A DNA stretch of 51,434 nucleotides from an uncultured bacterium (GCA_964573385.1 CAZNLA010000001.1:1-51434); one strand, 5' to 3'. Shown: positions 26,495 through 46,803, counted from the stretch's first letter. Notes: generated from the letters alone by a model not told the origin. Numbers and translations are program-made.

Positions 26495-27496
26495 ATGAGT
26501 TCTCCATTTTGGCCTTCCTGCAAAGTTGATATGCTTTGCGGGGAGGCAGATTTTGATAATATAATAATTCGCACTGATAGTATGACTGATCCTCGGAATG
26601 ATCGTGTTCTTCCGATCATGCAAGAGGAACAGATATTTATGTGTCGTGAAATGCTTTCGGTGTTACGTAAATTACCTGCCAATGCGTTAATTCTTGATGT
26701 TGGCACAGGTAGCGGTATTTTTGCTATTTATGCTGCTAAACAAGGGTTTAGAGTAATAGCTATTGATATTGCTTCCCGGGCTATTTCAATGGCTATAGAA
26801 AATGCAATCACTAATAATATTGTGATCGCTGATTCACCAGGTAATTTGAAACCTGGCTCTATTTGCTTTATTCAAATAAGTGTGGAAGATTTTGCTGATA
26901 TTCAGTCAAATCAACAGGCATTTGATCTCGTTATTCTTGCACCTCCATACAACCCTACAGCACCAGGTATATCTCCAGCTTTACATGCTTATGCTGCTGA
27001 AGATGGGCAACGTGCATTCCGCGAGCAAATACAGATAGCGCCTCATCTGTTGAAACCCGGAGGATATTGTATAGGAAATCAGATGAGTATCTCAGATGCT
27101 ATCGGTAAAGTAATAGCAATTGACGAAATCATTGAATCATTTAACAATCATTGCGAAATTGAATACTCACGTATTCTTCAAAAGTTTCCTAATCACTCCT
27201 GGAAGGAAAATGATTTAGGTGATATATCCATTCGTGATTTTTTAGAAGGTATGTACCAGAACTATTTAACTGGTAATTTACCTGCTAAAAATAATATAAA
27301 TTCTTTAAATATTAAAAAATATATAGATAAGATGAGTATAAATGATAATTACTTTGCTTTGATATATTATCAGATACGAAAAGTTGATTCAAAAATGCCA
27401 AGTGATACAAAATGTTATACATCGCTATTATCTCCTCCTATCAGTTGGGAGCACAGGATTTGGCTTCACCAGTGTATTGTTGATTTTTTTGAATAA
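26495..27496 (+). CDS. Class I SAM-dependent amino-methyltransferase (HemK/PrmC-like, PPY motif)
   Basis: 333 aa, starting 19 nt after the SBP stop. Motif I is ILDVGTGSGIFAIYAAKQG (nt ~26695). Motif IV is FDLVILAPPYNP (nt 26939-26956). The N-terminal DPRNDRVLPIMQEEQIF is paralogous to the next gene. Confidence 0.7.
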   Translation: MSSPFWPSCKVDMLCGEADFDNIIIRTDSMTDPRNDRVLPIMQEEQIFMCREMLSVLRKLPANALILDVGTGSGIFAIYAAKQGFRVIAIDIASRAISMAIENAITNNIVIADSPGNLKPGSICFIQISVEDFADIQSNQQAFDLVILAPPYNPTAPGISPALHAYAAEDGQRAFREQIQIAPHLLKPGGYCIGNQMSISDAIGKVIAIDEIIESFNNHCEIEYSRILQKFPNHSWKENDLGDISIRDFLEGMYQNYLTGNLPAKNNINSLNIKKYIDKMSINDNYFALIYYQIRKVDSKMPSDTKCYTSLLSPPISWEHRIWLHQCIVDFFE

Positions 27497-27622
27497 TTTT
27501 AAATTGTTATTCTTTTCATCCCCAATATTAAACATTTTGAGGATAATAAATAAAAAATATTATATAGTCAGGAGGATTTTTATTTTTCAAGAAGAAAAGT
27601 AATATAGTGTTGTAAGAATAAC

Positions 27623-30600
27623 GTGTCATCGTTGGGAGATAATACTGATATGGCATCAATTGAGAACTTTGAATGGATTCCCTGTTTAGCTGATCGGGAA
27701 CGTGGGATAGCGTTTTTTGACGGTATCACTATTGAGGCTGATCCTGTCACCGATCATAGATGGGATAGAGTTCTCCCTGTTTTAGAGGAAGAGCAAGTCT
27801 TTTCCTGCCGTATGATGTCTCAATATGGAAATTTGCAACCGGGTGAAATAGTACTCGATTTTGGTACAGGTAATGGAGTATATGCAATTTGGGCAGCTAA
27901 AAAAGGTTGTAAAGTTCTTGCAATAGATGTTTCTCCTCGTGCAATTCAATATGCAGCATATAATGCAGAAAAAAATGGTTTGGAGTCATTAATTGCTAAA
28001 AGCATTAATGAGGCCAAAAATAAATTAGCAAATGCCAAAAATGAATCCATTATATTTTGCGAACTTTTTCTTGAAGAAGTAACAGAACATCAAGATTGTT
28101 TGAATGGTGTATTTGATGTAATTATTCTTTCACCACCATATAATCCTACTAAGGAAGGCGTACTTCCTCCAGAACATGCTTTCAGAGCAGGAGCAGATGG
28201 TCAGGAAGCTTTTGAAAAACATATTGCTATAGCTTCAACCTTAATTAAAAAAGGCGGTCGAATCATTGGTAATCAGATGGCATTATCTGATGGGAATGAT
28301 AATATTAGCGCCTTGGAAATAATAGCAGATAAATTCAAGGATAAAGTATTTGCTGTTAACTATTGTAAAATTATTCCTGATGATCTCCCAATACGTGAAT
28401 TTTGTGAAAAGCAGTATAGCCACTTATTAGAGAATGAAAAAGAAAAAGAGAATGAAAAAGATAAAGATAAAGATAAAGATAAAGATAAAGATACAAAGAA
28501 GTTTAATGATTATATCGAATCTATTTTATTAAATAATAGGGATTTAGATAAGTTTTCCATGGTATGGTATATGATACATGTTGATACTAAAAGAAAAATT
28601 ACTAAATTATCTATTCCTATAAAATGGGCACAAAATAAAGAAGATGATATTTGGAATAAACGTATTGATTTACATAAAAATATTGTTATGCGAACATCGA
28701 CGTTAAACAGTATTCCAGCACCGACTTTGTTTGTCAAAAATGGTCTTCCTATGTATAAGGCGATCCTAGGACCATCTGTAATAAAAAGTAAGAACGAGCA
28801 ACTTAATAATATATTAGATGATTCAAGTTTATTAAAAGGGAAGCAAATAGATAAGTTTATTAAAGATTCTGGGATGCTTGATTTTTTTGATATTATTTTT
28901 GTTGATACAGCACCATGGTTTAAACAAGCAGTTAATTTTGAAGATATTTTTGAAGAAGCAAGAGTTTGGATAAATGCAGATATTGAAAATGATAATGAGA
29001 ACGTATTAAATGCTACCCGATTGCTTATTAATTGGCAAATAAATACCTGGGCATTGCAAAATTCAAAATGTGGTATTTATCAACACCCTCATTTTACTGG
29101 TGCAAATGCACCAGGTGAATGGCGTGGTATTAATTATTCAACGATATCATCAAACGAGAAAATAGAATCAATATTATCACGCATACGTACAGTTACTGGT
29201 GAACCAAAAGAGACTGAAGCGACAAAAAAACAGTTTTGTGATATGTTGAAAAAAGTAAAGATGAGTTTTAAAACTTATAATAGTATAGAAAAAGATATTT
29301 CAGCATTAAAACCTATTAATAAAGAATGGGATGATAATGACGTTTTCCAACTGGACCCATCAACAAAAAGAATAAAAAAAATAGATAAAAATATTGATGA
29401 AGATGTTGATAATGTAATTGTTTATCCAAAACGTTCGTTTTCTTGTACTTTATCACTTGAGGATTTAGTAGATGCAGAACAACAAAGTAAAAAAGATCCT
29501 TACGATGAATATAGGGAGGCATTAGATGAAAGAATAAATCAATTATTCGAAAATGTAAATAAAACAAAATATAATAAAGAAAATGCAATTGCTAAAGATT
29601 TAGATTTATGTCATCTTGTCATGCATAAAATGGTTGATGAAGAATTTAGTAAAATTGTAAATGGTGATATTAATAACCAGTTTAGAACATCTTCTTTAAT
29701 TAGTATCCCTCTTACGTTATCTGAGAATTCTGACAATAAAGATGATAGTAAAATTCCAGATACATATCGTGGCAGTGCATGGATTTATGCGAAATACAAA
29801 AAAGGCGATTCATGGACCCCAAAGCATGAAGAAAAATTACTGGAACTTGTACGTGCATTATGGATGATTCATGATAGTAAATATAATACAGAGTCGACAG
29901 AACGTTATGCTAAAGCCACAAAGGAAATGGCTCTAAGTTCTTATGCGCGTGGTGCTGCTCATGGATTTAAAAATGCAATGCTATTGCCTCCGTTATTTCT
30001 TGAAAATACCGGTCGTTCAATGAGAAAATATAACAATTTAGGTGGAAAGTTAAAAGTTACGATTGGCTTGTTAACTGATATTGCTGAAGTTGAAGATAAT
30101 ATTCATATTACTAATTGCCTGTTACAACTGCTTCAATCACAAGCGCAACTGTTTTTTTGGGTAATGGCGCCAGATCGTTTTGAAGATGAGAAAAAAGATA
30201 ATCGTCAAGTACAACGTTGGCCACTGATGTCATGTGGTATTCTTACGGTATACACTGCTTTGTTGGGTTTAGCTATAATTTTTACAACAACAGATGTATC
30301 AGATTCTCGCGAGAGAATGTTAGTAGATGATAGTGAAACAAATTGGAGAAAAGCAAAAGCAAAATCTGTATCACGTGACGCTATACAAATTAATATGGGT
30401 GGAACAGTATATGATGATAATATGATTAATTTATCTCTGGCAAATGTTAATCTTCCTAATTTCTCTATATCCGCCTCATTTACTCCATCTGCAAATCAAA
30501 CTAGCAAGGTAAGTGGTGTTTTCCGAGGTGCATTAGAAGGTATACTTATTGAATTATTTCAAAATGCAATACGTGCTGCACTTGATTGTCCTTGTGATGA

Positions 30601-30913
30601 ACAATCATTTGTTAAATTCAGTGTTAAATCTGATGAATTACTCACTATTATTACAATTATTAATACAGCGCGAGCAGAGAAAGCAAAGCGTTTATGGAAA
30701 CTACTGGATATAGAAAAATCTAAAGATGAAAGTTATAATCCAAGTGGTGGCATTCGAGGTCTTAGGCAAGTACAAACGTTAATTAGTGAGATAGGTGAAG
30801 GATTACCTTTTAAAGAAGTAATCTATCCTTCTCCTGATGATGATTACGATCCCGATACATTTCCTGATGAAAAAATTGTTGAAATCACTTGGATAATTAA
30901 GTTAAATATATAA
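27623..30913 (+). CDS. Methyltransferase paralog fused to a large region ending in a histidine-kinase/GHKL-like module (weak)
   Basis: 1096 aa. The MTase motifs are DHRWDRVLPVLEEEQVF, VLDFGTGNGVYAIWAAKKG and FDVIILSPPYNP. There is a (DK)n linker. A possible H-box is GAAHGFKNAMLL (nt ~29954), a possible N-box is LIELFQNAIRAA (nt ~30551), and a possible G2-like box is SGGIRGLRQV. No DxGxG box is present. Confidence 0.55.
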   Translation: MSSLGDNTDMASIENFEWIPCLADRERGIAFFDGITIEADPVTDHRWDRVLPVLEEEQVFSCRMMSQYGNLQPGEIVLDFGTGNGVYAIWAAKKGCKVLAIDVSPRAIQYAAYNAEKNGLESLIAKSINEAKNKLANAKNESIIFCELFLEEVTEHQDCLNGVFDVIILSPPYNPTKEGVLPPEHAFRAGADGQEAFEKHIAIASTLIKKGGRIIGNQMALSDGNDNISALEIIADKFKDKVFAVNYCKIIPDDLPIREFCEKQYSHLLENEKEKENEKDKDKDKDKDKDTKKFNDYIESILLNNRDLDKFSMVWYMIHVDTKRKITKLSIPIKWAQNKEDDIWNKRIDLHKNIVMRTSTLNSIPAPTLFVKNGLPMYKAILGPSVIKSKNEQLNNILDDSSLLKGKQIDKFIKDSGMLDFFDIIFVDTAPWFKQAVNFEDIFEEARVWINADIENDNENVLNATRLLINWQINTWALQNSKCGIYQHPHFTGANAPGEWRGINYSTISSNEKIESILSRIRTVTGEPKETEATKKQFCDMLKKVKMSFKTYNSIEKDISALKPINKEWDDNDVFQLDPSTKRIKKIDKNIDEDVDNVIVYPKRSFSCTLSLEDLVDAEQQSKKDPYDEYREALDERINQLFENVNKTKYNKENAIAKDLDLCHLVMHKMVDEEFSKIVNGDINNQFRTSSLISIPLTLSENSDNKDDSKIPDTYRGSAWIYAKYKKGDSWTPKHEEKLLELVRALWMIHDSKYNTESTERYAKATKEMALSSYARGAAHGFKNAMLLPPLFLENTGRSMRKYNNLGGKLKVTIGLLTDIAEVEDNIHITNCLLQLLQSQAQLFFWVMAPDRFEDEKKDNRQVQRWPLMSCGILTVYTALLGLAIIFTTTDVSDSRERMLVDDSETNWRKAKAKSVSRDAIQINMGGTVYDDNMINLSLANVNLPNFSISASFTPSANQTSKVSGVFRGALEGILIELFQNAIRAALDCPCDEQSFVKFSVKSDELLTIITIINTARAEKAKRLWKLLDIEKSKDESYNPSGGIRGLRQVQTLISEIGEGLPFKEVIYPSPDDDYDPDTFPDEKIVEITWIIKLNI
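28460..28495 (+). repeat. (GATAAA)5 + GATACA in-frame hexanucleotide microsatellite
   Basis: Five perfect GATAAA units (28460-28489) followed by GATACA. It encodes DKDKDKDKDKDT inside ORF 27623-30913. Confidence 0.95.
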
Positions 30914-30974: not shown

Positions 30975-32894
30975 ATGCGACAAAATAATAGTTTATATAC
31001 AGTTTGGATAGCAGATGACCAAATTGGAAAAAGCGTGAAAGACCAATTAAGAGAAATATATACTGATGATTGTTTAATTATAAAGGGCTTTGATACCGCT
31101 TTCTCAGTACAAGAAGAAATTAATAGAGCTAAAAAACATAATGATATTTCTATCCTGCCAGACATTGCGGTTTTTGATGTAAATTTTAATGAGAATTTAG
31201 AACCTGGTGATGTTAAAGGTAATAATAAAGAAGGTATTCGTATTGCAGGTAATTTGCAAAAATTAGCCACAGAACTAGGCGTTTATGATAATATGAAACT
31301 TAAAGTATATACTGCTGATCCCAATATAGAAGAATATATAGAAAATTTTATAAAGGATTGTGGTGAAGCTTTAAAGTTTGAAGTTAATATAAAGCAAAAT
31401 TCGACTAGATTGAACTCTATTATTTTAGATGTAGAGGATATGTTATGGAAAATATCAACGGAACGAATTTTAAGCAAAGGATTAATCATATCCCCAAATA
31501 TATATATGTCATTATCGTTGTTTTGTACACCAATTATTCAACGATATAAAGATATGTCTTTAATTGAAGTAATCAATAAAGCAAAACAATATGCCTTAGA
31601 ACTTGCAAAGCAATTATCACAAGCTACGTTACCATTAGGAATGAATTTCCCCATATTAATTTTTTCTAATCCTCGTTCCATAGAACAAATTAAAAATGTT
31701 ATTTTCAATACACAATTAGGGTATGCTGTTAGACAAAATTATTATGATATAAATAGATCTTTAGGTGAAGCATTTGATAAGCTTGTTACTACATTGAGAG
31801 AATTACATAAAATAGAAAAATCTTTAGGACCTACTGATGAGGAAGAAGAAAAATGGGATAGTATACAAATTACAAGATTATATCCAATACGTGATGTAGC
31901 CGGCGATTTCCCTAATGTTGCTCGTTGGTTAAACAAAGATATTAATTTTATCGATGAATTATATATTGATTTATTAAAAGCAATAGACATCATTTCTGAA
32001 TATGATAACCACCTATTATTAGCTAAATCATTAAAAACAATTAATGGAGAACAGTTAACCCCGTTAGCAAAAGCCTGTCATAATGTTGTATGTGAAGATG
32101 ACATTGAAAAATGGGTAAATGAATCTCATCTTAATATAAACGAAATTAATGGTAGAACTATTATTCAAAGAATAGAGGATGCAGGAAATACAATTAAATC
32201 TGTGTATGAAGATCACTGTAGAAAAAAATGTAAAGATTATCACCTACTACCAAATAGAACCATTCCATTCGGATTAGATAGATGTAGTATATGTAAATTA
32301 AATATTGCAGGACCATATACAGCTTTTGGGAAAGATTATGAAAAAGGACAAGGTAGCATTCATAAACCACCTGTAAGAGAAATGTTTGAAGATACATTTA
32401 GGAATAATGTTAATAAAATCATATCTGTAGATGACCAAGAGATATTAAAAGAAGTTGGTAAGTTGGAAATAGAGGGTAAATTAGATACAGTAGTTTTAAC
32501 TGACTGGTCATATTTTTTTGTAAATACTGATGGAGTCTTTAATAAACTTTGTCAAAATGGGCAAAGTAAGATAGATACTTGCGAGGTTACTAAAATAATA
32601 ATTAACGTGACATATAATTCTAATCTTGACACAGTGGATTTTTATTTATATTTTAAACGTAGCCGTCCAATTGACCACACTAATGAATTTCCTGGCGAAA
32701 CAGGTCAATTACTAAAGCAATTATGCGGTTGGGGAGTTTCATATTATCGATATTCTAACGATCGCAACGAAATTGTAAAAAAATCTATATGGCCAACAAG
32801 TAATAAAAGTGATCGTATTCCAAATAATAATAATGAATACTTTCTTGAAGTAGTATGGACTTTTACGAATTATGCTAAAAAAAGGATTATCTAA
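30975..32894 (+). CDS. Hypothetical protein with an N-terminal receiver-like domain
   Basis: 639 aa with SD AAAGGAG. The receiver-like pattern is YTVWIADDQ ... IAVFDVNF ... LKVYTADP. A Cys cluster CRKKCKDY...CSICK is present. The C-terminal part is unassigned. Confidence 0.5.
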   Translation: MRQNNSLYTVWIADDQIGKSVKDQLREIYTDDCLIIKGFDTAFSVQEEINRAKKHNDISILPDIAVFDVNFNENLEPGDVKGNNKEGIRIAGNLQKLATELGVYDNMKLKVYTADPNIEEYIENFIKDCGEALKFEVNIKQNSTRLNSIILDVEDMLWKISTERILSKGLIISPNIYMSLSLFCTPIIQRYKDMSLIEVINKAKQYALELAKQLSQATLPLGMNFPILIFSNPRSIEQIKNVIFNTQLGYAVRQNYYDINRSLGEAFDKLVTTLRELHKIEKSLGPTDEEEEKWDSIQITRLYPIRDVAGDFPNVARWLNKDINFIDELYIDLLKAIDIISEYDNHLLLAKSLKTINGEQLTPLAKACHNVVCEDDIEKWVNESHLNINEINGRTIIQRIEDAGNTIKSVYEDHCRKKCKDYHLLPNRTIPFGLDRCSICKLNIAGPYTAFGKDYEKGQGSIHKPPVREMFEDTFRNNVNKIISVDDQEILKEVGKLEIEGKLDTVVLTDWSYFFVNTDGVFNKLCQNGQSKIDTCEVTKIIINVTYNSNLDTVDFYLYFKRSRPIDHTNEFPGETGQLLKQLCGWGVSYYRYSNDRNEIVKKSIWPTSNKSDRIPNNNNEYFLEVVWTFTNYAKKRII

Positions 32895-33646
32895 TGTCTG
32901 ATATTTCAATTGATAATAATCAAATACCTTTATATGAAGATATTCATAAGAATCAAGATGATGTTTTTCTTTTTATAGATAGTGAATTAGAAAAACATAA
33001 ACTTGATTATATAGTGAAAGAACATTCCAAATATTGTAAAAAAGGTTTTGACATAGCATGTCTGGATTTGTTTATTACTGATCCAGTGGTGAAAGTTGTA
33101 TTATTACATGTAAAGGATGAAAACAATTATAGTAAAAGTTATGCGAAGATTGCGATTAATGCATACAAGCCATTAATTATATTCTCTGGTGAGAAGTCGT
33201 TAGCTTCTGAGATGACTTCTAATTTAAAAGAAGAATTTATTCATGCAAAAATAGATGGTTATAATTCTGATGAATGTTCACGTAGATTACATCGAGCCTT
33301 AAGAACAAAGCCACCGAGTATTGATCCTTTATTTGGACACGATGAATTAGAAATTGTTCTTGAAGTTTTAACTATAATTTGGGGATTATCATTAAAACTG
33401 GAAATGAATAATGAGTTTAACTTAATTGGAAGTTTTAAAGAAAATGAAATGCTTCGGGAAGGATTATTTAATATTTGCAGTTCATACATTTGTCCGGATA
33501 ACCCTTGGGGAGAAGGTCAGTTAACTATTAAAGGTATAGATGATGAAATAGACAAATGCGAAAATAATACTCAAATTTTTAATTCTGTAATAGTAAAACT
33601 ACGAGATAGTTTACTTGAGTGGGCAGATAAATGTGATAAGATTTAA
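32894..33646 (+). CDS. Hypothetical protein (possible degenerate receiver fold)
   Basis: 250 aa. Its start overlaps the previous stop (ATCTAATG). The pattern VFLFIDS ... IACLDLFI ... PLIIFSGE is weak. Confidence 0.45.
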   Translation: MSDISIDNNQIPLYEDIHKNQDDVFLFIDSELEKHKLDYIVKEHSKYCKKGFDIACLDLFITDPVVKVVLLHVKDENNYSKSYAKIAINAYKPLIIFSGEKSLASEMTSNLKEEFIHAKIDGYNSDECSRRLHRALRTKPPSIDPLFGHDELEIVLEVLTIIWGLSLKLEMNNEFNLIGSFKENEMLREGLFNICSSYICPDNPWGEGQLTIKGIDDEIDKCENNTQIFNSVIVKLRDSLLEWADKCDKI

Positions 33647-33702
33647 CTGATGTTATGTATGTTTGATATTGTCTAAATGCTTATATTGAAAAAAGGTAAC
33701 AG

Positions 33703-34644
33703 ATGAAGATACATTATGAACACACTGCAATTAAGGCAATATTTGAAGCATATAAATTACCTGATAATCTTAATTATTTACCAGTAGTATTAGCCTGGTC
33801 ATCTTACGAGTCATTATGTTTGTATCCTGAATATTCATTTTTACCAGTAGGTGTAGCTACGTATCTTCAACTACCACAATCTATATCTGAAATAAATAAT
33901 GTTATTTTTAAACACAAAGAACAAAAGATTTCAAATCGTTATATTGAATTGCAATACCCTATATATCAATTAGAACAGAGTTTAATATTTGTTGAAAATG
34001 ATTTAAAATCTAATGATTATATTCAAGCAAGAAATCGTATTAGTCATATTAAGCGATTCTGTAATAGATATTGGTCTTTTTTATTAGATCCTTATTTATG
34101 CTTATTGAATGATTCAACATATATTGATAGTAATGACTCATTATTTGCATGTCAGAAATTTTTCGATGTTTTACAATTTTTATCATGGATGTCATGCAAA
34201 AAGATATTTTACGCAAATGATAAAAATCAATGTTCCGTTATACAGGATGGTTTTGTTTCTCTGGAAACAATAGTTTTAAATGCGTCTCTTTTTCAGTCAT
34301 CTTTACCGCAAATGCTGCAAAACGCATTACAAAATATAGACGGCCAGCAATGGTGGATAATTCTGCAGGAAGAGATAATACTCGCGCGGACAGAGATAGA
34401 AAAATGGGGTGGACATTTGTTTTCCCCAGTAATATATCAACAAATATGTGAGATGGTAGACGTTACCAATCGGGTGTCTAATATATTAAATCATTGGACA
34501 AAATTGCATCTAACTGATGAGATGATAAAATCACAAATCTCTGAATTGCACCAGGGATTAATAGATATCCGTAATGGATTCGATGCAATTCAAACCGGAT
34601 ACGAGGAAATGACTGGCGCTTTATTAAAACTCGCAAAAGGGTAA
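33703..34644 (+). CDS. Hypothetical protein, paralog of ORF 37291-38205 (pseudo-receiver + helical module)
   Basis: 313 aa. MKIHYEHTAIKAIFEAY...LPVVLAWSSYESL...YLQLPQSISEINNVI...YQLEQSLIFVEND aligns with MTILYEHKSIQLIFQSF...DFFIGWSARNKL...YLHLPCSTEEIRKFI...WQLAESMRLLENN. Confidence 0.55.
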   Translation: MKIHYEHTAIKAIFEAYKLPDNLNYLPVVLAWSSYESLCLYPEYSFLPVGVATYLQLPQSISEINNVIFKHKEQKISNRYIELQYPIYQLEQSLIFVENDLKSNDYIQARNRISHIKRFCNRYWSFLLDPYLCLLNDSTYIDSNDSLFACQKFFDVLQFLSWMSCKKIFYANDKNQCSVIQDGFVSLETIVLNASLFQSSLPQMLQNALQNIDGQQWWIILQEEIILARTEIEKWGGHLFSPVIYQQICEMVDVTNRVSNILNHWTKLHLTDEMIKSQISELHQGLIDIRNGFDAIQTGYEEMTGALLKLAKG

Positions 34645-34652
34645 TAATTCGA

Positions 34653-37286
34653 TTGCAAAATAATTTGGAAAAACGCAATATAGCAATTATAGGGTTTCGT
34701 GACCCACTGCGCGAAGTAATTAATAATGCATTAAATCAGCATTTCATCATCGATACAGTTACGGATGACTTGTCATTGATAGCGTCTCTGGCACACGATA
34801 CTGTTCTTGTTTGCCATGCCGACTGGTTTAAATCTTTATCCATTGATTCTATAAGTGTCATACGAAAGCGATTCTTTATTTGGAATCCAATTATTGTTAT
34901 AGAACGTTCCCCCAATAACGTGGATGAAGATACCATGTGGAACGTTTGCCGACTTACTCCACCTTTAAATGTATCTCTGCTGGTAAAACATATTACGCAG
35001 GCAATATCATTTCCGGATAACCGTCAGGTTGAGGTTTTAACATCCGCATTGTATCAACTGCGTGAAGATTTGTTGTACCTGCATCAGTTAGAAAATGGCA
35101 ACACCCATATTGACGACAATAAAGTGCGCAAAGATGTGGCAGAAACATTAACATTGTTGAAAAACGTTGGTAAAGTTGCCAATAATAAGGAGTTTACCGA
35201 TTTAAGTGAAACAGCAAACGACCTGTTAGCGTTGCCAACATTGGATGAAGCAGCATTGCAGGTGATATTGCCGTTGGTTGTAAATGCCGATTCTAAAGCC
35301 CGGGAGATAGATTTGCCGGCGTTATTGCGCAGTAAAATGCACCAGTTAAGCAATACAGTTCGTTTGGCGTTATACCATGCTAACGATTCATCATCTACAA
35401 GAATTGGTGATTTGTACGACTTGCTGTCTGTATTGCCGATTCAGCAAATTGATACATTTTCACATGATTTGGTTGAACCGTTAATCAGTTTACGAAATAA
35501 GTTTTTTGAAATAGTACATGACAAAACCGATATTACAGAAAATTTTAATGCGACACAACTGGACGAGTTACCATTTCAATGCGCAACCTTGATAAGTAAG
35601 TTATTAATGCCATCAGTGCCATTATCGGCGTCAGTAATAAAGCGGATAGTGGTAATAGAAGATGACCCGGGTTGGCAAACTCAGATTTTATCTGTATTGG
35701 CTACCATTGGATTAACTATTCCAATTCAATCTGCCAGCACTATAGAGGAAGGCGAACGGTTATTAAAAGAAAGCGAAAATGGCACGCTGGCACTGGTTGA
35801 TCTGGGATTGCCGTTAAATGAAAAAGACGCGAAAAAAGGATTAACAGACCTTGATGGTGGCCTGAAATTATTGAAGATATGCGCAAAAAATCCGAATTTG
35901 GGAATACGCGCTATAGTATTGACCGCCGCAGAGAACTTTGCCGATGCGGTGCGCGACGCCCTGGCAAGTGGGGTAGACGCAGCCGATTATATCCAAAAAG
36001 ACCCGCGAAATTGGGAAGAACAATTGCGTTCGCGCGTACAACTTGCCGTGCAGTCACCCACACCGACCCACCTTCCCGTGGTGGATGTGCTGCAATGCAC
36101 CGCCAGGCTAATCCGGGTTGATGGGGTAGAAATTGCTTTGGAAAGAAGGCCATATATTTTATTTGAATATTTGGCAAAATATGCGCGTATCCCCAGAAAA
36201 ATAACATATATTCGCCAAGCTCTGACAACGCCAGGCGACCGTGACATAACACCAGCAATGTCTAAGGAACAGCAGAAATCATTGCTTGCTGGCGATGATA
36301 TAAGCCCGTATGATTTGCTGACCCCAAAACATCTGCAGGATTACCTGTATGACCTGCGCAAACAGATTGAAAACGGTTTGGATGGTTTGGGGATAACCCA
36401 TGATTATAGCAATCTAATCACTTATCATCCTGATTCAGAAGCGTATTGTTTAAATGCTGATATTCGCATGGTTGAGCAATTTGAACAGTTATCAAAAACT
36501 GCAGAATTGCGGAAGGTATTGATAATAGAGGACCACCCACAATGGTATGAAACCTTATCAAATCATCTGAAAAGTTTAGGTTTTGATGTTAAGGCAGTAA
36601 AAACACTGGATGACGCAAAACAGGCGATAGATGAATGGGCCCCGCATAATGTAACATTAGACCTGCAGATACCGCGAAATAATGATGAATTGCAGGCAGG
36701 TATACAACCACATGAAGAAAATGGAATAGCGGTGATGAGATATTTAAAAGAGCACCTTCCAGACACCGGTATTATAGTGATTTCTTCAATTGATTGGAAA
36801 GATTCAGTAATGCTGGAGATGTTGCGAGCAGGAATAGCGCCCCACGATTACATATCAAAACAATGGGATGATGCATTAAACCGGGTTGCGCAATCGATAT
36901 GGAGATTAACAATTCGGCGTGAAAACGGTTCTCAAATTAATCCGGGCATGTCACCAGGCACAATTGCGTATATTAATATTGATGAAGTAGCAGATACGAT
37001 AGAAATAGCCGGTTGCCAGGTTAAACTATATCCTGACGGGAAAAAGATATTAAAGATGCTGGCAAAAAGTCCGAATATGCCAGTGCAACGGGATACAATA
37101 GTTGATATGTTATGGCCAAACCCGGATTTGATTCCTGATGATTTTGATGGTTTAATAAACACCATCATATCAAGACTGCGTAAATCTATCAGTGACAGCA
37201 CACAAGGTAAAGTAGAAGGCAAGCAATTGATTCGTAATGCTGACGGTGTATATTGGTTGCAAGGAATTATCAGTTATAAAGAATGA
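34653..37286 (+). CDS. Giant response regulator: pseudo-receiver + helical region + (REC - OmpR/PhoB-type winged helix) x2
   Basis: 877 aa with a TTG start 8 nt after the previous stop. REC1 is IVVIEDDPGW...LALVDLGLP...AIVLTAAE...DYIQKD, followed by wHTH IRVDGVEIALERRPYILFEYLAKY. REC2 is VLIIEDHPQW...VTLDLQIP...IIVISSID...DYISKQ, followed by wHTH IEIAGCQVKLYPDGKKILKML...LINTIISRLRKSI. Confidence 0.7.
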   Translation: MQNNLEKRNIAIIGFRDPLREVINNALNQHFIIDTVTDDLSLIASLAHDTVLVCHADWFKSLSIDSISVIRKRFFIWNPIIVIERSPNNVDEDTMWNVCRLTPPLNVSLLVKHITQAISFPDNRQVEVLTSALYQLREDLLYLHQLENGNTHIDDNKVRKDVAETLTLLKNVGKVANNKEFTDLSETANDLLALPTLDEAALQVILPLVVNADSKAREIDLPALLRSKMHQLSNTVRLALYHANDSSSTRIGDLYDLLSVLPIQQIDTFSHDLVEPLISLRNKFFEIVHDKTDITENFNATQLDELPFQCATLISKLLMPSVPLSASVIKRIVVIEDDPGWQTQILSVLATIGLTIPIQSASTIEEGERLLKESENGTLALVDLGLPLNEKDAKKGLTDLDGGLKLLKICAKNPNLGIRAIVLTAAENFADAVRDALASGVDAADYIQKDPRNWEEQLRSRVQLAVQSPTPTHLPVVDVLQCTARLIRVDGVEIALERRPYILFEYLAKYARIPRKITYIRQALTTPGDRDITPAMSKEQQKSLLAGDDISPYDLLTPKHLQDYLYDLRKQIENGLDGLGITHDYSNLITYHPDSEAYCLNADIRMVEQFEQLSKTAELRKVLIIEDHPQWYETLSNHLKSLGFDVKAVKTLDDAKQAIDEWAPHNVTLDLQIPRNNDELQAGIQPHEENGIAVMRYLKEHLPDTGIIVISSIDWKDSVMLEMLRAGIAPHDYISKQWDDALNRVAQSIWRLTIRRENGSQINPGMSPGTIAYINIDEVADTIEIAGCQVKLYPDGKKILKMLAKSPNMPVQRDTIVDMLWPNPDLIPDDFDGLINTIISRLRKSISDSTQGKVEGKQLIRNADGVYWLQGIISYKE

Positions 37287-37290
37287 AGTT

Positions 37291-38205
37291 ATGACTATTT
37301 TATATGAACATAAATCAATACAGTTAATATTCCAATCTTTCTTTCCGGAGATAGATGAGAAAAATTGTGATTTTTTCATAGGGTGGTCAGCACGAAATAA
37401 ATTAGCTTTATCACCGCAGTTTTGTATATTAACGCAACCGGAAATACCTTATCTACATTTGCCGTGTTCAACTGAAGAAATTCGTAAATTTATTCGCAGA
37501 GTTCCAACAGAATTATCTGGTGATAAATTTATAAGTTCTTCTTTTCCATATTGGCAATTGGCCGAAAGTATGCGACTTCTTGAAAATAACCAGCAATCTT
37601 TTACCAGATTACAAATGCTTGATGCTTTTTGCAACCATGAATGGCCGGGATGGTATGACGATTTATTTACTAAATTATATAAAGTTATTAATAACAATAA
37701 AAAGGATATATCATTTATAACTCGAATAGTTATCAAAAATGATGGTAAGTTTGCAGCACAGGTAGATTTCGTCAGATCTTTTTCAACATTATTCCACAGT
37801 GCTAAAAACGATGCTGTTAATCGTTGGTTCGGGCCATTAAGAACCATGTTGTGTGGATATGCTCCGGATGAACCGGGAGGGTATCGTTTGTCAGATATAT
37901 TATTGTTGTTGGATAAAGGTGAGAAGTGGTGGGTAACATTGCCATCGATGCTGAATACAACCTGTGACTATCTGGTAAAACGCGGTATATCCGATAAATT
38001 ACCTTTTGAATATAAATTGGCAAAAATAATGGCAGCACAGGCAACAGATTTATCGAATACTATTGTTAGATGGCTTGCAGTTATGGATGAAAAAACTTTT
38101 CTTAAACAACATGTAAAGAGTTTAAAACAAATTGATAGAATGATAGATGGTATTCAACGAATAGAGCATAATGCCGCAAAATTACGAAAAAGGTTGGTGG
38201 ATTAG
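37291..38205 (+). CDS. Hypothetical protein, paralog of ORF 33703-34644
   Basis: The track ORF starts at 37237 but overlaps the previous gene. ATG 37291 (MTILYEH...) lies 4 nt after the previous stop and aligns with the start of the paralog. Confidence 0.55.
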   Translation: MTILYEHKSIQLIFQSFFPEIDEKNCDFFIGWSARNKLALSPQFCILTQPEIPYLHLPCSTEEIRKFIRRVPTELSGDKFISSSFPYWQLAESMRLLENNQQSFTRLQMLDAFCNHEWPGWYDDLFTKLYKVINNNKKDISFITRIVIKNDGKFAAQVDFVRSFSTLFHSAKNDAVNRWFGPLRTMLCGYAPDEPGGYRLSDILLLLDKGEKWWVTLPSMLNTTCDYLVKRGISDKLPFEYKLAKIMAAQATDLSNTIVRWLAVMDEKTFLKQHVKSLKQIDRMIDGIQRIEHNAAKLRKRLVD

Positions 38206-38206
38206 A

Positions 38207-41032
38207 ATGCGAAAAGTTTTATTGATTGATGACGATGGACAACATTGGGCAGAAGTACTAAATCGGCCATTTAATGCTGATAATTGGCATATTGTTGTAG
38301 CAAAAACTGCTGAGAGTGGTATTTACCGTTTGCAGCAACGAGATATTGGTGTGATTCTTCTTGACTTACAATTTGCTCATTCACAGATGCAAGGTACTGA
38401 CGCATTAACTGTTTTAAAAAGTAATTATCCGGATATCCCGGTAATTATTATTACCAGCTCCGGTAAAGCGACTGATATCCGGACTGCTATAGAATGTGTC
38501 AAAAATGGTGCATGGGATTATTTTACTAAATCTAAACTTGACGCGAATCGATTATTACAGGAATGTAATAAAGCAGTTGAATCGGCATTAACTCATGAAC
38601 GTTTAAATCGTCTGGTAGATTCTTTCCATCGAACAGTAAGTGATAGTCCATTTATCTTATCCACCACAGAAGATGACGGCAGTTCACTTGCTATTTTTGC
38701 AATTAAAATTATTTATGTAACACAATTTGATAAAGAGAATCAGGATATATTATCATATCAGAGATGGTTTGAAGATCAAATGCATTGGCATGAGAACTTA
38801 GTGTCTGGTTTGTTGAGTCGCTTACCGGGAAGAACTGTAGAATTGCGATATATTAATACAGTAACAGAAGATGGTGATGATAGTCTTGGAATTTTTGTAG
38901 TAGGAAGAATTAAAGCATCGAATTTAGATATTGCACGCCAGGGAGCACATGAATTATGGATTGATTTACAGTCATTACTTCATGTTAATGATAAGTTAAT
39001 CGGTTTTACTTCTGTATCTAATGAGAATGATTTGCGGATAATTTTAAAACCATTTCATGTTAAAGAAATCACGGAATTTCGTCGTGAAGGTGTATCTGTT
39101 CCTGTTGAGGATGATATTACACACATAGGATTTGGTGAAAAAACAGACATCGTTAAATCAAAGGATATTTTGATTCCAAGACCCTTGCCACAAACAGATT
39201 CACTGATGAAAGTTTTCTGCGAAACTTTATCACATAATAAATATCCTGTTTTAGTTTCTATTAAGTTAGATTGTGATAGTGTTGTTCTGCCTGATATAAA
39301 AAATGGTTTTATTCCGCAGGATCTATTGCTTTCTCAGGATCAATCAGGTGTTTTATGGAGAAAGTTTGAAAGTTTATATAATTGTGAAACAACAATATGT
39401 AATTTACGTATTTGTGTAGCTTCCGAAAAGAAGTTACCGTCATCATTGTTGAATATGATAGGAACAGAATTAATATCTACAGAACCATCACTTTGGAAAA
39501 CATATAATTTGTCGACAAAAAATGTTGAGAAAGCTGTTACTGATTATGCAATTAAACTTGATAATATTGAAGTTATGGAAACTTTAACGACAGTATATAC
39601 CATCAGTGAAGCCACACACGCATTTAGATTGCCTATTGTAATAGGTGCCGGGTACATTGGTCTTTCAACCAATAAACCACAATATACATATATTCCCAAA
39701 CGGTTACCTAAAAAAGGCGCTTTGCTTGGGGTAAAGCATACATCAAAAGGTGATATTAATATTCGCATACCGGATGAAGACCGTACAAAGCATGTATATG
39801 TCCTTGGCCAAACAGGAACAGGTAAATCAACATTAATGACCAGTATGATATTATCAGATATTGAAGCTGGTAAAGGTGTATGTGTCTTAGATCCACATGG
39901 TGATTTGATTGATTATTTATTACCACGAATACCGGAAAAACGTGCTGATGACTTAATTCATCTTGACCCGGGGTGCAATGTAGATACACCATTCGGGTTG
40001 AATCTATTTGAGGCAAGAACGGATTATGAAAAAGATTTCGTTGTTCAGGAATCAATTAATATTTTTTATAAATTATTCGATCCAAATAGAACAGGTATGG
40101 TAGGACCACAATTTGAACATTGGATGAGAAATGGTGCTCTGACATTGATGTCATCTCCTGAAGGGGGAACATTAATAGATATTTCAGTTTTATTTACTGA
40201 TTTATTTGAATTTCGTAAAAAAGGTGGTGAGGGAGGTGAGTTTATGAAAGCGAAACGTTCCTTTGTCACAAATCCGGCAGTGAAAGATTTTTGGCGACAA
40301 ATAGATGGTGCTACAGATTTTCACATTTCAGAGATGATGAATTATTTTATTAGTAAATTTAGCAGATTTTCCGGAAATAGAACTATACGAAATATAATGG
40401 GACAAACAAAAAGCACTATCAACTTACGGGATGCAATGGATACCAGTAAAATATTATTAATTAATTTATCTAAAGGTATGCTGGGTGATATGAATAGTAA
40501 TTTATTGGGATCAATATTTTTATCCAGAATATATATGGCTGCTATGAGCAGGCAGGAACTTGCTATTAACGATCGTCGTCCATTCTATATTTATCTTGAC
40601 GAGTTTCAGAACTTTGCGACTGAATCTATGGAGTCGATGTTAAGTGAAATTCGTAAATACGGTGTAGCTTTGGTTTTGGCACATCAAAATCAAGCGCAAT
40701 TACCGACTAGATTACTTGAGGCAGTATTGGGTAATGTGAATTCCACGATATTCTTTCGTCCGGGAGCACCTGATGCAAATCGGGTAAATTTATATTTACA
40801 AAATAGATTTACAGAAGCCGAATTAGTAAACTTTCCTAATTGGCACGTTATCGCACGTATACTCATTGATAATGTACCATCTATTCCATTTGTTTTTAAT
40901 ACCGTTATTAATGATTTACAACCTAATAATGAAATAGCAAGTTATTATCGTGAGATGAGCAAGAGAAAATACGGTAGACCTTCTGAAATAGTAGAACGTG
41001 AGATAAATAAAAGATTAATGATAGATAGGTGA
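38207..41032 (+). CDS. REC-domain protein fused to an FtsK/HerA/VirD4 (T4CP-like) P-loop ATPase
   Basis: The track ORF starts at 38171. ATG 38207 (MRKVLLIDDD) lies 1 nt after the previous stop. REC is VLLIDDDGQ...VILLDLQF...VIIITSS...DYFTKS. Walker A is VLGQTGTGKST (nt ~39806-39832), with VLDPHGDLIDYL, Walker B FYIYLDEFQNF, and LVLAHQNQAQL. Confidence 0.65.
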   Translation: MRKVLLIDDDGQHWAEVLNRPFNADNWHIVVAKTAESGIYRLQQRDIGVILLDLQFAHSQMQGTDALTVLKSNYPDIPVIIITSSGKATDIRTAIECVKNGAWDYFTKSKLDANRLLQECNKAVESALTHERLNRLVDSFHRTVSDSPFILSTTEDDGSSLAIFAIKIIYVTQFDKENQDILSYQRWFEDQMHWHENLVSGLLSRLPGRTVELRYINTVTEDGDDSLGIFVVGRIKASNLDIARQGAHELWIDLQSLLHVNDKLIGFTSVSNENDLRIILKPFHVKEITEFRREGVSVPVEDDITHIGFGEKTDIVKSKDILIPRPLPQTDSLMKVFCETLSHNKYPVLVSIKLDCDSVVLPDIKNGFIPQDLLLSQDQSGVLWRKFESLYNCETTICNLRICVASEKKLPSSLLNMIGTELISTEPSLWKTYNLSTKNVEKAVTDYAIKLDNIEVMETLTTVYTISEATHAFRLPIVIGAGYIGLSTNKPQYTYIPKRLPKKGALLGVKHTSKGDINIRIPDEDRTKHVYVLGQTGTGKSTLMTSMILSDIEAGKGVCVLDPHGDLIDYLLPRIPEKRADDLIHLDPGCNVDTPFGLNLFEARTDYEKDFVVQESINIFYKLFDPNRTGMVGPQFEHWMRNGALTLMSSPEGGTLIDISVLFTDLFEFRKKGGEGGEFMKAKRSFVTNPAVKDFWRQIDGATDFHISEMMNYFISKFSRFSGNRTIRNIMGQTKSTINLRDAMDTSKILLINLSKGMLGDMNSNLLGSIFLSRIYMAAMSRQELAINDRRPFYIYLDEFQNFATESMESMLSEIRKYGVALVLAHQNQAQLPTRLLEAVLGNVNSTIFFRPGAPDANRVNLYLQNRFTEAELVNFPNWHVIARILIDNVPSIPFVFNTVINDLQPNNEIASYYREMSKRKYGRPSEIVEREINKRLMIDR

Positions 41033-41096
41033 AATTTCTATTCATACCGTTTAATTTTATGATTTGTAAATCAGATATTGATAAATTGGAGAAAAA

Positions 41097-43145
41097 ATGC
41101 CGAAAAAAATAATATGCACCGTTGAACCTGCAATTGAGAAATTACTTGAAAGTTTTTTTGTTAAATGGGATGTTCAAGCAATAATGATTCCTTGTTCGAA
41201 CTCTATGGGAAACTTAAAACAATTATTACCAGAACAAGAGAAGTTTGTTGAGTGTTGGGCGAATGCTGTTATTGAACATATTGAAGATGATTCTGCGCTA
41301 TTAGTTCAGGTTGATTTAATCCCAGGTAAACGTGCAAAAGGATATGGTTTATTACTGGCAGAACGAATACGTGCTGAACGTATAATACCTACAATTATTA
41401 TGACTCTTGATACTAATATTGCAACGCGCAATTCGACACGTCGGGCCAGGTTAGCAAATGGAAAAACACGATTTCCTGTTGTGCCTATTATTACAGGAGA
41501 TGATATACAAAATAAATTTGCATCTCGTATACCTTTTGTTGTGTGGGACCCTCTGTCAGGTAAAAATAGTTTTAATAAATCATATAATGCGGCTCAAAAA
41601 ACTATTTTTGGAATAAGACCACAGCAGGAAATAGTGGTAAAAAGTGAATTAGTTGAGGCACTTCAGGACGAAGAAGCCGCAGCACTGCGTCATCGAATTA
41701 AAAATATGTTAGCGAGTTTAAGAATATTAGACGGTGCGTATAGGAATGGGTGGTTAACATATGATGAAGTAACAAAATCGTTAACAACTTTACAAATGCG
41801 TGCTGTCGATGAAAATCAGAAGAAAGCATTGGAAAGTTTGGCTAATACATTGTATAATATTCTTCAAAGTTCATTATTACAAGAAGCAAGTCCTCGCGAC
41901 ATGACACTGGTTGTATGTGATGACTTATGGGAGACAGCTGGATGGGATCAGGTTATTCCACCCATGGTAAGTCATCTTTTTGGTATGGACACCCATGGGG
42001 TTGTATCACTAAATGAACTTGCGCTATATTTAGAAAAAGCAAGTGAAGAATTAATTCCACCCCGCACATTGCTACTGGACGTTCATGTCGGAACAGAAAA
42101 TGTTGATGCTGATTATTTAGAATATTTACACAAAGATTTCCCGGATCTGGATATAATTTTATTTACTACAGATTTGAATGATGGTGTATTAGTCCGTAAA
42201 GTTTATGAATTGGGGTATCGAATATTTTTTAAAGAACTTGATGAATCGGCAAGAAATACTCGTCAATATGCTACTCACCTACGGCAAATGCTGGAACAAT
42301 CTATCAGGTCATATCCCATTATGCATTTATTACAATTTGCTGAAAAAGCAGATAGTTCTGTAATGGTGGCCGAACCGGCAGCAGTTATTAAAACGATGCA
42401 ATCAGTAATGAGATTGTGGAGAGACACAGGTGAAACGTCCAGTGTATTAGGATTGACCGCTTTGCATGAAAGGCTGACAAAGTGTGTTCACGCTATGGCA
42501 AACCATAGGGAATCTCGATTCCCTACCAAAGTAAATAGTAGTAGTGTTGATTGGGGTTTAGTATTGTCGAGAATCTGTAATTATTTAAATGTTAATGTCA
42601 ATGATTGTGGTTTACCATTTACACAATTATTTCAAAACACATTTTATTTAGCTAAATATTCACGTAACCAGATGGCGCATAATGCAGATATGATACTTGA
42701 AGCAGACACTAATATGCCTGCGTTAGGCATTGCACTAACGCAAATAATCGCAAGTATAACGTTATCGGGTGTAGCATATCCGATAGCTATACAAAATTCG
42801 AATGAAATATTAGATGATGAGTACCTTAGTCTTAGTTTGTTGGAGTTCGCAAAATCAATATATTATTCAACAGAATCTATGAAGCCTCGGACGCGTTCCC
42901 GTTTCAAATCTCTGGTGGAAGATGGGGCATTTTGTGAAGCACCAAAATTACTTCAATTATTAAATGATTTATCTCATCAGGCAGATCCTATTTTTATGGG
43001 TAAAACAGGGATGCCGGTTTATACACCGACAAAATTTTTACACAATGAGATTGTAAATCTTAACAATAATCTTGATAAAATACAGGAAATGAACTCCTAT
43101 CAGTGGGTACTTGTTTTGTATTGCATATTAGTGTTAGACCGGTAA
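41097..43145 (+). CDS. Pseudo-receiver + REC + C-terminal HEPN-like domain protein
   Basis: 682 aa. REC is LVVCDDLWE...LLLDVHVG...IILFTTD...IFFKE. The HEPN-type motif is YSRNQMAHN (R at nt 42663, H at 42678). Confidence 0.55.
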   Translation: MPKKIICTVEPAIEKLLESFFVKWDVQAIMIPCSNSMGNLKQLLPEQEKFVECWANAVIEHIEDDSALLVQVDLIPGKRAKGYGLLLAERIRAERIIPTIIMTLDTNIATRNSTRRARLANGKTRFPVVPIITGDDIQNKFASRIPFVVWDPLSGKNSFNKSYNAAQKTIFGIRPQQEIVVKSELVEALQDEEAAALRHRIKNMLASLRILDGAYRNGWLTYDEVTKSLTTLQMRAVDENQKKALESLANTLYNILQSSLLQEASPRDMTLVVCDDLWETAGWDQVIPPMVSHLFGMDTHGVVSLNELALYLEKASEELIPPRTLLLDVHVGTENVDADYLEYLHKDFPDLDIILFTTDLNDGVLVRKVYELGYRIFFKELDESARNTRQYATHLRQMLEQSIRSYPIMHLLQFAEKADSSVMVAEPAAVIKTMQSVMRLWRDTGETSSVLGLTALHERLTKCVHAMANHRESRFPTKVNSSSVDWGLVLSRICNYLNVNVNDCGLPFTQLFQNTFYLAKYSRNQMAHNADMILEADTNMPALGIALTQIIASITLSGVAYPIAIQNSNEILDDEYLSLSLLEFAKSIYYSTESMKPRTRSRFKSLVEDGAFCEAPKLLQLLNDLSHQADPIFMGKTGMPVYTPTKFLHNEIVNLNNNLDKIQEMNSYQWVLVLYCILVLDR

Positions 43146-43177
43146 TATTATGAAAATATATAATTTGAAGAAATAAA

Positions 43178-44047
43178 ATGTTAAAAAACATCTATCTAAT
43201 TGAAGAAAAAAATTATACTGTTCAGGAACTTGATTTATTGTTTCCGGGGCAAGCAATTGTTGCAGTAGACTTTGCTGTTTCTGGTATTGAAAGATCATTT
43301 ATTAAAAATGGTTTGCATACAGTTGGATTAGTTTCAAATTGTGACCATCACATACCAGTGTCTCAATTTGAAAAAGTAGTATCAAGCACAAATTTAGCTA
43401 TATGCTATGTTAACCAATATGGCAAATTACCCGAGAAAACTGTTGTTGTGATAAATCATGTAGATTGTGACAGTGTTTTAGCTAGTTTGATTCTGAAAGG
43501 ATTTTTACCTACTGATGATAAATTTGGAAATGCAGCTATTGCTGCCGACCATACAGGTGAAGAAAATGATATTGCTGATTTGTTAAATTCTTTACAAAAG
43601 TTTAAAAGTTTAAATTATTCAGTAAACAATTTAATGTTATTTTTAGGGGAAGATCAAATTCCTAAGAAGGTATTAGACCTGATTGAAATACGTCGGGATG
43701 ATCGAAAAAGAGCATGGGAATTAGTGGAAAATGCCGGATTAGAGTTTCTTGATGGTGTATATTATGGTACTTTGAATAGAAAAATTGATGGTGCATTTCT
43801 GCCGGCGCTTTTGCCAGATGCGAAGATTATATTAATATTTACTCCGCTTAATGGTGATGCTAGTCGTTTAGAGGTAAAAGTTCGTTTGGGCTTTAACGCA
43901 CCTGAAGGGAAACATTTAAATAATATTGGAATAAAAGAGTTTGACCCAGCATATGGTGGACGTTGGAATGCAGGGTCAAATAAACGCGGTGGTGGAACAA
44001 GCTTAAAGCCGTTAGATTATGTAAAAGAGATTCTAAAAAGAATTTAA
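43178..44047 (+). CDS. Hypothetical protein, possibly a DHH/DHHA1-like phosphoesterase (weak)
   Basis: 289 aa. VVVINHVDCDSVLASLIL resembles the H-x-x-D-x-D-x-x-x-S DHH motif. NCDHH and AADHTGEEN are also present. The C-terminal YGGRWNAGSNKRGGG resembles the DHHA1 GGGH..AAG motif. The motif order is not canonical. Confidence 0.3.
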   Translation: MLKNIYLIEEKNYTVQELDLLFPGQAIVAVDFAVSGIERSFIKNGLHTVGLVSNCDHHIPVSQFEKVVSSTNLAICYVNQYGKLPEKTVVVINHVDCDSVLASLILKGFLPTDDKFGNAAIAADHTGEENDIADLLNSLQKFKSLNYSVNNLMLFLGEDQIPKKVLDLIEIRRDDRKRAWELVENAGLEFLDGVYYGTLNRKIDGAFLPALLPDAKIILIFTPLNGDASRLEVKVRLGFNAPEGKHLNNIGIKEFDPAYGGRWNAGSNKRGGGTSLKPLDYVKEILKRI

Positions 44048-44127
44048 TAAATATGACACAGGTAAAAGTTTTAAATATCAGATATCAGAAATAAGAATAA
44101 TTTTCAAGTCTATAAGAGGTGAATATT

Positions 44128-46782: not shown

Positions 46783-46803
46783 TAATTTTAAAGGTGACCC
46801 ATT

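Follow-up and report, generated by a model that had tools for sequence, protein, structure and literature searches.

A predicted, strongly diverged histidine-kinase-type module fused to a methyltransferase in a receiver-rich gene cluster of an uncultured bacterium

We analyzed a 51,434-nt stretch of DNA from an uncultured bacterium (GCA_964573385.1, CAZNLA010000001.1:1-51434), referred to below as the window, which is part of a contig of 64 kb. The subject of the analysis is a pair of adjacent genes encoding P0001, a protein of 333 amino acids (aa), and P0002, a protein of 1096 aa designated X, together with the 639-aa protein encoded after X, designated Y. A preceding interpretation made from the DNA alone (the sequence-only reading) had described P0001 and X as tandem amino-methyltransferase paralogs, the second of which is extended by a large region ending in a kinase-like module. 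Both open reading frames are present, and the features that could be recognized within them are listed below (SAM, S-adenosylmethionine).

26495-27496, plus strand: P0001, a stand-alone HemK/PrmC-like SAM methyltransferase module (ATG start, 333 aa)
27623-30913, plus strand: X (P0002), a methyltransferase followed by an uncharacterized middle region and a DHp/CA-like kinase module (GTG start, 1096 aa)
27674-28687, plus strand: predicted methyltransferase module of X, residues ~18-355 (Pfam Methyltransf_31/PrmA and NCBIfam PRK14968/PrmC-like; no match reaches its equivalog cut-off)
27854-27877, plus strand: motif I of X, LDFGTGNG, conserved in the family
28130-28147, plus strand: motif IV of X, SPPYNP (residue 170), conserved in the family
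28439-28493, plus strand: (AAAGAT)x9 microsatellite, an in-frame hexanucleotide repeat encoding (DK)n (Tandem Repeats Finder)
28688-29809, plus strand: family-specific middle region of X, ~370 aa without a known domain, conserved in most of 119 family representatives
29942-29977, plus strand: H-box YARGAAHGFKNA with the putative phospho-acceptor His780 (29960-29962), invariant in 19/19 close family members and placed by hhalign on the His of SHELRTP
30140-30166, plus strand: QAQLFFWVM, a family signature that closes the second long helix (model 2, helix 85-119)
30461-30910, plus strand: CA-like (GHKL/Bergerat) domain, residues ~947-1096 (model 2, Foldseek, hhalign)
within 30545-30580, plus strand: N-box ELFQNA (hhalign)
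30656-30670, plus strand: G1-equivalent IINTA, with N1014 (hhalign)
30743-30772, plus strand: G2 box SGGIRGLRQV (hhalign)

The gene for X has an alternative start codon, ATG at position 27650 (codon 10), which is preceded by the sequence GGGAG. This ATG agrees with the N-terminus of the closest homolog (P0003) and may be the true start of X, replacing the GTG.

Scans of the full-length X protein with Pfam, NCBIfam and PADLOC gave matches on the methyltransferase part only, and residues ~330-1096 matched nothing in these collections or among the PDB sequences at normal thresholds. The C-terminal part was modeled using AlphaFold2. The model of residues 730-1096 (model 2), built from an alignment of eight sequences, has a mean predicted local distance difference test (pLDDT) value of 66.8 and a predicted template-modeling (TM) score of 0.74; in most blocks of the alpha/beta core the mean pLDDT is 71-86, with lower values in two loops. 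A Foldseek comparison of this model with the PDB yielded 102 matches at E<=1e-3, and among the 50 matches listed all 50 are histidine kinases or HK-type domains, or PDK/BCKDK. The kinase matches include 5c93, HK853 (TM 0.53), an EnvZ chimera, YycG, ZraS, KinB, DivL, RetS and phytochromes, as well as the CA domain of ThkA (TM 0.59, root-mean-square deviation 4.6). A poorer first model, covering residues 330-1096 (four sequences, pLDDT 42.7, low confidence over the middle region), gave the same structural families. Both components implied by the sequence-only reading, i.e. a DHp-like helical part and a GHKL (Bergerat) domain, were thus obtained by modeling, and the prediction that the C-terminal ~370 residues of X adopt a strongly diverged histidine-kinase-type fold (DHp plus CA) is well supported.

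The kinase-like motifs that had been quoted are found at residues 777-787 (AAHGFKNAMLL), 975-986 (LIELFQNAIRAA) and 1041-1050 (SGGIRGLRQV) of X, and their assignment to the H-, N- and G2 boxes was reproduced by hhalign. Comparison of the X family with 30 canonical kinases encoded in its own genome gave a probability of 83.7% (E=8e-6, 230 columns). The alignment sets (i) YARGASHGLKNAL on FLSSMSHELRTPL, which places His780 on the phospho-acceptor His, (ii) ELxQNA on NLLSNA, which places N981 on the Mg-binding Asn of the N-box, (iii) I-N-T-A on V-D-T-G, which places N1014 on the G1 Asp, and (iv) GGIRGL on GTGLGL of the G2 box, of which G1043 and G1046 are invariant. The control alignments scored 0.2% (reversed kinase alignment) and 0.1% (receiver alignment), while the wider group of the family, compared with the same 30 kinases, reached 93% (E=3.5e-7).

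Conservation was examined in the 19 members that form the group closest to X; identity to X is 21-38% in eight aligned members. Residues H780, K783, E977, N981, N1014, G1043, G1046 and Q1049 are invariant in all 19, and N784 is present in 18. The following patterns are invariant or nearly so: (Y/F)A.GA(A/S)H(G/S)(F/L)K(N/T)A, Q.(Q/E)LFFW(V/I)M, E-L-x-x-N-A, h-x-N-(S/T)-A and G-G-(I/V/L)-x-G-(L/I/V)-x-Q. In the wider group the His is retained in 63 of 68 sequences. Since they are invariant in relatives as diverged as these, the motifs of X are not a product of chance. The hydrophobic segment that had also been pointed out in this part of X is a helix in the model and is not hydrophobic in several homologs (P0004, P0005); it is therefore probably a buried helix and not a membrane span.

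Relatives of X are rare. A word-indexed search of 5.8 billion proteins returned three, and an exhaustive profile search of 1.84 billion representatives returned 119 clusters (50% identity), almost only metagenomic. None turned up in the pattern scan of 185,579 species genomes, that of metagenomes recovered the locus of P0005 and nothing else, and 2 of 401 genomes of the same phylum contain a match. The family may be divided into a close group (~25 representatives), which carries the motifs of X, and a larger group of ~900-1000-aa proteins, which share the methyltransferase and middle region and are more diverged at the C-terminus. Most members are methyltransferase-kinase fusions, so that the fusion, which had been regarded as unusual, is the norm across the family and not a peculiarity of one locus. 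Our literature search found no description of such a fusion, family or architecture. The middle region (profile positions 14-417) was matched in most matches of the exhaustive search, and it has no match in Pfam, NCBIfam or the PDB.

The genes surrounding P0001 and X were annotated as follows.

21982-26475, plus strand: Liv/Urt-type ABC importer, comprising two BPD_transp_2 permeases, a double ABC ATPase and a Peripla_BP_6 binding protein at 25342-26475 (Pfam)
30975-32894, plus strand: Y, 639 aa, with a cryptic N-terminal receiver domain of ~140 aa (conservation, hhalign)
32894-50238, plus strand: downstream co-directional genes, including the presumed phospho-acceptors (Pfam)
34653-37286, plus strand: REC+wHTH protein (Pfam)
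38171-41032, plus strand: REC+HerA/VirD4-like ATPase (Pfam; partial PADLOC mad8 match, E=1e-13; the same architecture occurs in the related loci L009 and L012)
44119-46782 and 46804-50238, plus strand: REC proteins (Pfam)

The Pfam scan of Y gave no match. Its N-terminus (VWIADDQ ... LPDIAVFDVNF ... VYTAD ... K) contains the residues of a receiver domain, i.e. the acidic pair D14-D15, D68 (31176-31178), T113 and K140, and hhalign aligned it with REC (72%, E=3e-5; controls 0.2-0.4%); the Thr, the phospho-acceptor Asp and the acidic pair all coincide in this alignment. The seven divergent sequences compared (Y and its counterparts from six aligned loci) all retain D15, D68, T113 and K140, and the wider group keeps D68 only. 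The remaining ~480 aa of Y are conserved in the related loci and contain no known domain. We also considered whether the C-terminus of Y (GGGxL..WG) is a second GHKL-like domain; this was rejected, as the hhalign probability was 0.4% with the kinases and with X alike. By their conserved residues and order, X and Y look like a cognate kinase-receiver pair.

The ABC importer directly adjoins the methyltransferase genes on their upstream side, and is considered genuine because its binding protein carries an N-terminal hydrophobic signal/anchor sequence. Ten related loci had enough flanking sequence for an analysis of synteny (three from the wider group; of the seven from the closer group, two are copies of the P0005 contig). 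All ten keep the gene order, and the importer comes first in nine; the P0005 contig ends too soon upstream to reveal one. Importers of two unrelated families occur in this position, either the Liv/Urt type or the polar amino-acid type (SBP_bac_3, BPD_transp_1, ABC_tran). Genes for a radical SAM-B12-aminotransferase fusion, a CYTH protein, an AAA protein or a separate methyltransferase are sometimes placed between the importer and X, and in the three wider-group loci the stop codon of the binding-protein gene overlaps the start codon of X. Downstream of X lie a gene for a ~470-640-aa protein in the position of Y, two genes for small proteins and then those for receiver-domain proteins. In every locus examined, X is succeeded by a protein comparable in size to Y; homology to Y was tested for six. 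The receiver-domain outputs comprise REC + HerA/VirD4-like ATPases, REC + winged helix proteins and other large REC proteins.

Several of the related loci have features of their own. In the wider branch (L013 13672-15477, L014 16032-17483, L001 45-1229), a sigma54-type AAA+ activator replaces the REC-HerA/VirD4 and REC-wHTH proteins. The proteins encoded between the importer and X in L010 (5447-8365) and L011 (4240-7200) are ~970-986-aa fusions of B12-binding, radical SAM and class V aminotransferase domains. The locus of P0005, a relative without the methyltransferase (L002 5427-9355, identical to L005), encodes X, Y, a small protein, and then an HD-CE protein and a CYTH + RelA_SpoT protein; the domains of these two proteins point to outputs of a nucleotide-signal or effector kind. 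Three of the related loci have integrase, relaxase or MobC genes nearby. In the contig studied here, the 13 kb beyond the window (51435-64405) contain ordinary genes (for a GH5-like cellulase, cohesin, peptide deformylase, APH-type kinase and HpcH aldolase) and no integrase, so that the cluster looks chromosomal.

The whole genome contains 61 HATPase_c and 86 receiver matches, and the 64-kb contig contains 0 and 6, respectively. As there is no Pfam HATPase_c match on the contig, X is the only kinase candidate of the cluster, in agreement with the sequence-only reading, and no canonical HATPase_c gene was present in the related loci examined. Given the position of the family between the importer and the receiver proteins, X is probably the missing kinase of this receiver-rich signaling cluster.

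The methyltransferase modules of P0001 and X can be aligned over ~355 residues (X residues 18-355) with 36% identity (E=8e-55). The motifs ascribed to them are present: DPRNDRVLPIMQEEQIF in P0001 and DHRWDRVLPVLEEEQVF in X, motif I (LDVGTGSG and LDFGTGNG, respectively) and motif IV (APPYNP, at residue 149 of P0001, and SPPYNP). Across the family, motif I LD[VI]GTGSG, motif IV (S/A/N)PP(Y/F)(N/T)P and the N-terminal DPRWDRVLP are conserved, and motifs I and IV are kept in the homologs that have the domain, so that a loss of motifs gives no ground for objecting to the assignment. Both proteins match generic class I SAM methyltransferase models, and their top curated models are the protein N-methyltransferases HemK/PrmC/Mtq2 and PrmA, far under the equivalog cut-offs; the scores against TIGR03534 (NCBIfam equivalog, 199 bits) are 47.1 and 43.7 bits. 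The best PDB sequence match of P0001 is 4dzr, a release-factor Gln-N5 methyltransferase (E=9.6e-6), with APPYNP aligned to NPPYIP. The modules share with HemK/PrmC, Mtq2 and PrmA a predicted class I SAM fold, GxGxG and an (N/S/A)PP(Y/F) motif IV. They differ from HemK/PrmC in score (47 bits vs 199) and in the first residue of motif IV, which is S in 23, A in 13 and N in 12 sequences of the family (APPY/SPPY in P0001/X vs NPPY in HemK/PrmC). The module of the X family is further set apart by its N-terminal DPRWDRVLP..EEEQ, a C-terminal extension of ~100 aa and the nearly constant fusion to the kinase part. Judged by the intact SAM and (S/A/N)PP(Y/F) motifs, the N-terminal domain of X and P0001 are predicted HemK/PrmC-type N-methyltransferases. 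They may act on an amino group of a protein partner or a small molecule, as a regulatory or adaptation step, and are probably not DNA methylases of a restriction-modification system.

The description of P0001 and X as tandem paralogs is correct insofar as they share this module, but a simple or recent tandem duplication does not account for P0001, which resembles the N-termini of other full-length fusion proteins (up to 44%) more than it does X (36%). Since it ends exactly where the middle region begins, it could be the remnant of a second member of the X family, or else a separately acquired copy. The (DK)n run, which had been taken for an interdomain linker, falls within the part of X that is homologous to P0001 and hence does not link domains. 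The length of the (AAAGAT)x9 repeat that encodes it, inside the methyltransferase module, could differ among strains.

Taking these observations together, we favor, with fair confidence, the view that X is a sensor kinase, soluble and cytoplasmic, from a hitherto undescribed and very diverged family of histidine kinases. X would bind a nucleotide triphosphate via E977 and N981 of the N-box and the GGIRG lid, His780 would be autophosphorylated, and the phosphoryl group would be passed to Asp68 of the translationally linked Y and/or to the receiver domains of the downstream effectors. The signal would probably come from the upstream amino-acid-type ABC importer, in the form of either the imported ligand or the activity of the transporter, with the ~370-aa middle region and the N-terminal enzyme domain of X as putative input or regulatory parts. 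In common with the classical histidine kinases (HisKA/HisKA_2 plus HATPase_c; HK853, EnvZ, WalK/YycG, NtrB), which are its top structural and profile matches, X has a His-bearing helical part, a Bergerat domain, the N-box Asn, a G2 lid and an adjacent receiver partner. Unlike these kinases, it remains below the thresholds of the domain models, has N-(S/T)-A in place of DxGxG and a ~200-residue spacer with QxQLFFWxM, and contains no membrane or PAS/GAF/HAMP input, the methyltransferase and the ~370-aa region being present instead.

Several observations weigh against this view. X passes no curated HisKA or HATPase_c threshold and has no such match at E<=0.01 on the full protein; with relaxed Pfam settings, HATPase_c_5 was matched at E=0.0064 (16.8 bits vs a cut-off of 22) and HATPase_c at E=0.21, and searches of PDB sequences with profiles of X gave nothing significant. 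The distance between the H-box and the N-box is ~200 residues in X vs ~110 in typical kinases, and in model 2 the pLDDT falls below 50 around the His (model residues 26-49). The 61 HATPase_c matches elsewhere in the genome could serve the receivers of the cluster. The most serious point concerns the G1 box, whose DxGxG motif had already been reported missing from X, as both motif inspection and hhalign agree. The G1 site of the family has N in 19/19, S/T in 18/19 and A in 16/19 members, and both glycines are lost; D/G/G is present in 30/30 canonical kinases of the same genome, and the Asp in 0/19 members of the X family. In all GHKL enzymes known to us, the G1 Asp binds N6 of adenine. Its replacement by Asn abolishes ATP binding in Hsp90 and GyrB. 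The use of ATP by X is thus not assured, and it is this family-wide replacement that keeps our confidence in its kinase activity at a fair level only.

The replacement is itself conserved, and no variation is seen in the N-box Glu and Asn or in the G2 lid, which suggests that the change from DxGxG to N-(S/T)-A reflects an altered nucleotide recognition and not decay. The module would then either use its nucleotide differently, perhaps with another base, or not autophosphorylate. A more far-reaching proposal, which we put forward tentatively, is that the X family represents a new class of phosphodonor, whose pocket has been rebuilt for a donor other than ATP (e.g. GTP), acting in a mobile phosphorelay triggered by the importer. 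Such a relay, with a protein or small-molecule N-methyltransferase permanently fused to the donor, a dedicated importer of the amino-acid type, and HerA/VirD4-like ATPase, HEPN-like, wHTH and sigma54 activator proteins as receiver-gated effectors, would possibly play a role in conflicts with phages or mobile elements.

It is unlikely, in our opinion, that the module is a non-autophosphorylating relic, i.e. a Spo0B-like His phosphotransferase, a phosphatase or a scaffold, which moves phosphoryl groups between the many receiver domains and obtains its phosphate from another kinase or from acetyl phosphate. This would agree with the lack of DxGxG in 19/19 members, the presence of the non-canonical kinase-like proteins DivL and RetS among the structural matches, the many receiver domains of the cluster, which fit a relay, and the abundance of HATPase_c matches outside the contig. 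On the other hand, an invariant Mg-binding Asn, a Glu four residues earlier and a G2 lid would not be expected had nucleotide binding been lost, the N-(S/T)-A that replaces the G1 box is conserved rather than degenerate, and no alternative phosphodonor is conserved in the related loci.

Even less probable is an assignment of the module to the GHKL protein kinases of the PDK/BCKDK type, phosphorylating Ser/Thr of a partner, or to another GHKL ATPase, with a His that is purely structural or catalytic. Foldseek ranks PDK2/3/4 and BCKDK among its top matches, with full-length coverage, and these kinases have, like X, a helical bundle joined to a GHKL domain and a nearly identical N-box (ELxxNAxRA). 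The N-box of X (ELFQNAIRAA) is closest to that of BCKDK (LDYILPELLKNAMRAT / LPELLKNAMRAT; E=0.07, not significant), and it is for this likeness that the Ser-kinase reading was kept as a minor rival. An E-x-x-x-N pattern with Glu is typical of hydrolyzing or Ser-kinase GHKL enzymes, which also speaks for it. However, the TM-scores of histidine kinases (0.36-0.59) are mostly higher than those of PDK/BCKDK (0.25-0.33), hhalign sets His780 exactly on the phospho-acceptor His, and the H-x-x-K-N pattern of X is one that we take to recall the H-boxes of NtrB and HisKA_2. Moreover, PDK and BCKDK are Ser kinases with an intact DxGxG and without receiver partners, whereas the conserved partners of the X family are receiver domains whose Asp is intact.

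We regard as very improbable that P0001 and X form the modification arm of a MADS-like anti-phage system, with X mainly a DNA N6-adenine/N4-cytosine methylase carrying a regulatory tail: the best PADLOC matches are the methylase core of mad2 (E~1e-18 to 1e-19) and, for the REC-HerA-like protein, mad8, type III CRISPR accessory genes lie upstream, and related loci are near integrases or relaxases, but the mad2 match does not extend beyond the generic core for SAM binding (positions 276-393 of the 492 in the model), protein Gln/Lys methyltransferases are the best matches among curated models and in the PDB, neither a target-recognition domain nor a nuclease partner was detected, and the methyltransferase-less members of the family retain the same context. 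The published MacSyFinder model of MADS has MAD6, MAD7 and MAD8 as mandatory components; the PADLOC scans detected no MAD6, MAD7 or other mad protein, the mad8 match is partial, and membership in MADS was rejected.

Returning to X as a putative sensor kinase, its genetic association with an importer has parallels in transporter-coupled sensing. In the BceAB-BceS and PstSCAB-PhoR systems, a kinase without an extracellular sensor of its own is encoded together with an ABC transporter. The BceAB-S structure (8g3a) is among the Foldseek matches of X. The X cluster differs from these systems in that its importer is of the amino-acid type and of two families and its kinase is predicted to be soluble. 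CheR-type methyltransferase-kinase fusions exist in domain databases, and represent a methyltransferase class different from that of X. The genome studied here contains five CheR open reading frames (266-592 aa).

The nearest functional analog of the cluster is Detocs, which is composed of the kinase DtcA, the receiver DtcB and the receiver-effector DtcC (bioRxiv 10.1101/2023.01.24.525353). The two have in common two-component phosphotransfer (predicted for the X cluster), receivers fused to non-transcriptional effectors and defence-island-like or mobile contexts. The kinase of Detocs is canonical; unlike Detocs, the X cluster includes an ABC importer, a methyltransferase and a non-canonical kinase among its 13 or more genes. 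No Detocs component was matched in the PADLOC scans, although the presence of Detocs models in PADLOC 2.0.0 is unconfirmed.

Histidine kinases rank with the best-catalogued proteins of bacteria, and yet the X family eludes Pfam, NCBIfam and PDB sequence searches. If our interpretation is correct, it would supply the missing kinase of a conserved, receiver-rich cluster, and reveal a new architecture, that of a sensor kinase with an integral N-methyltransferase and a genetic tie to a nutrient-type ABC importer. It would also mean that selection can replace the supposedly universal adenine-binding Asp of GHKL proteins, bringing up the question of nucleotide specificity. Should the cluster prove to be defensive or linked to mobile elements, the two-component immunity described for Detocs would be extended to a much larger, importer-gated system.

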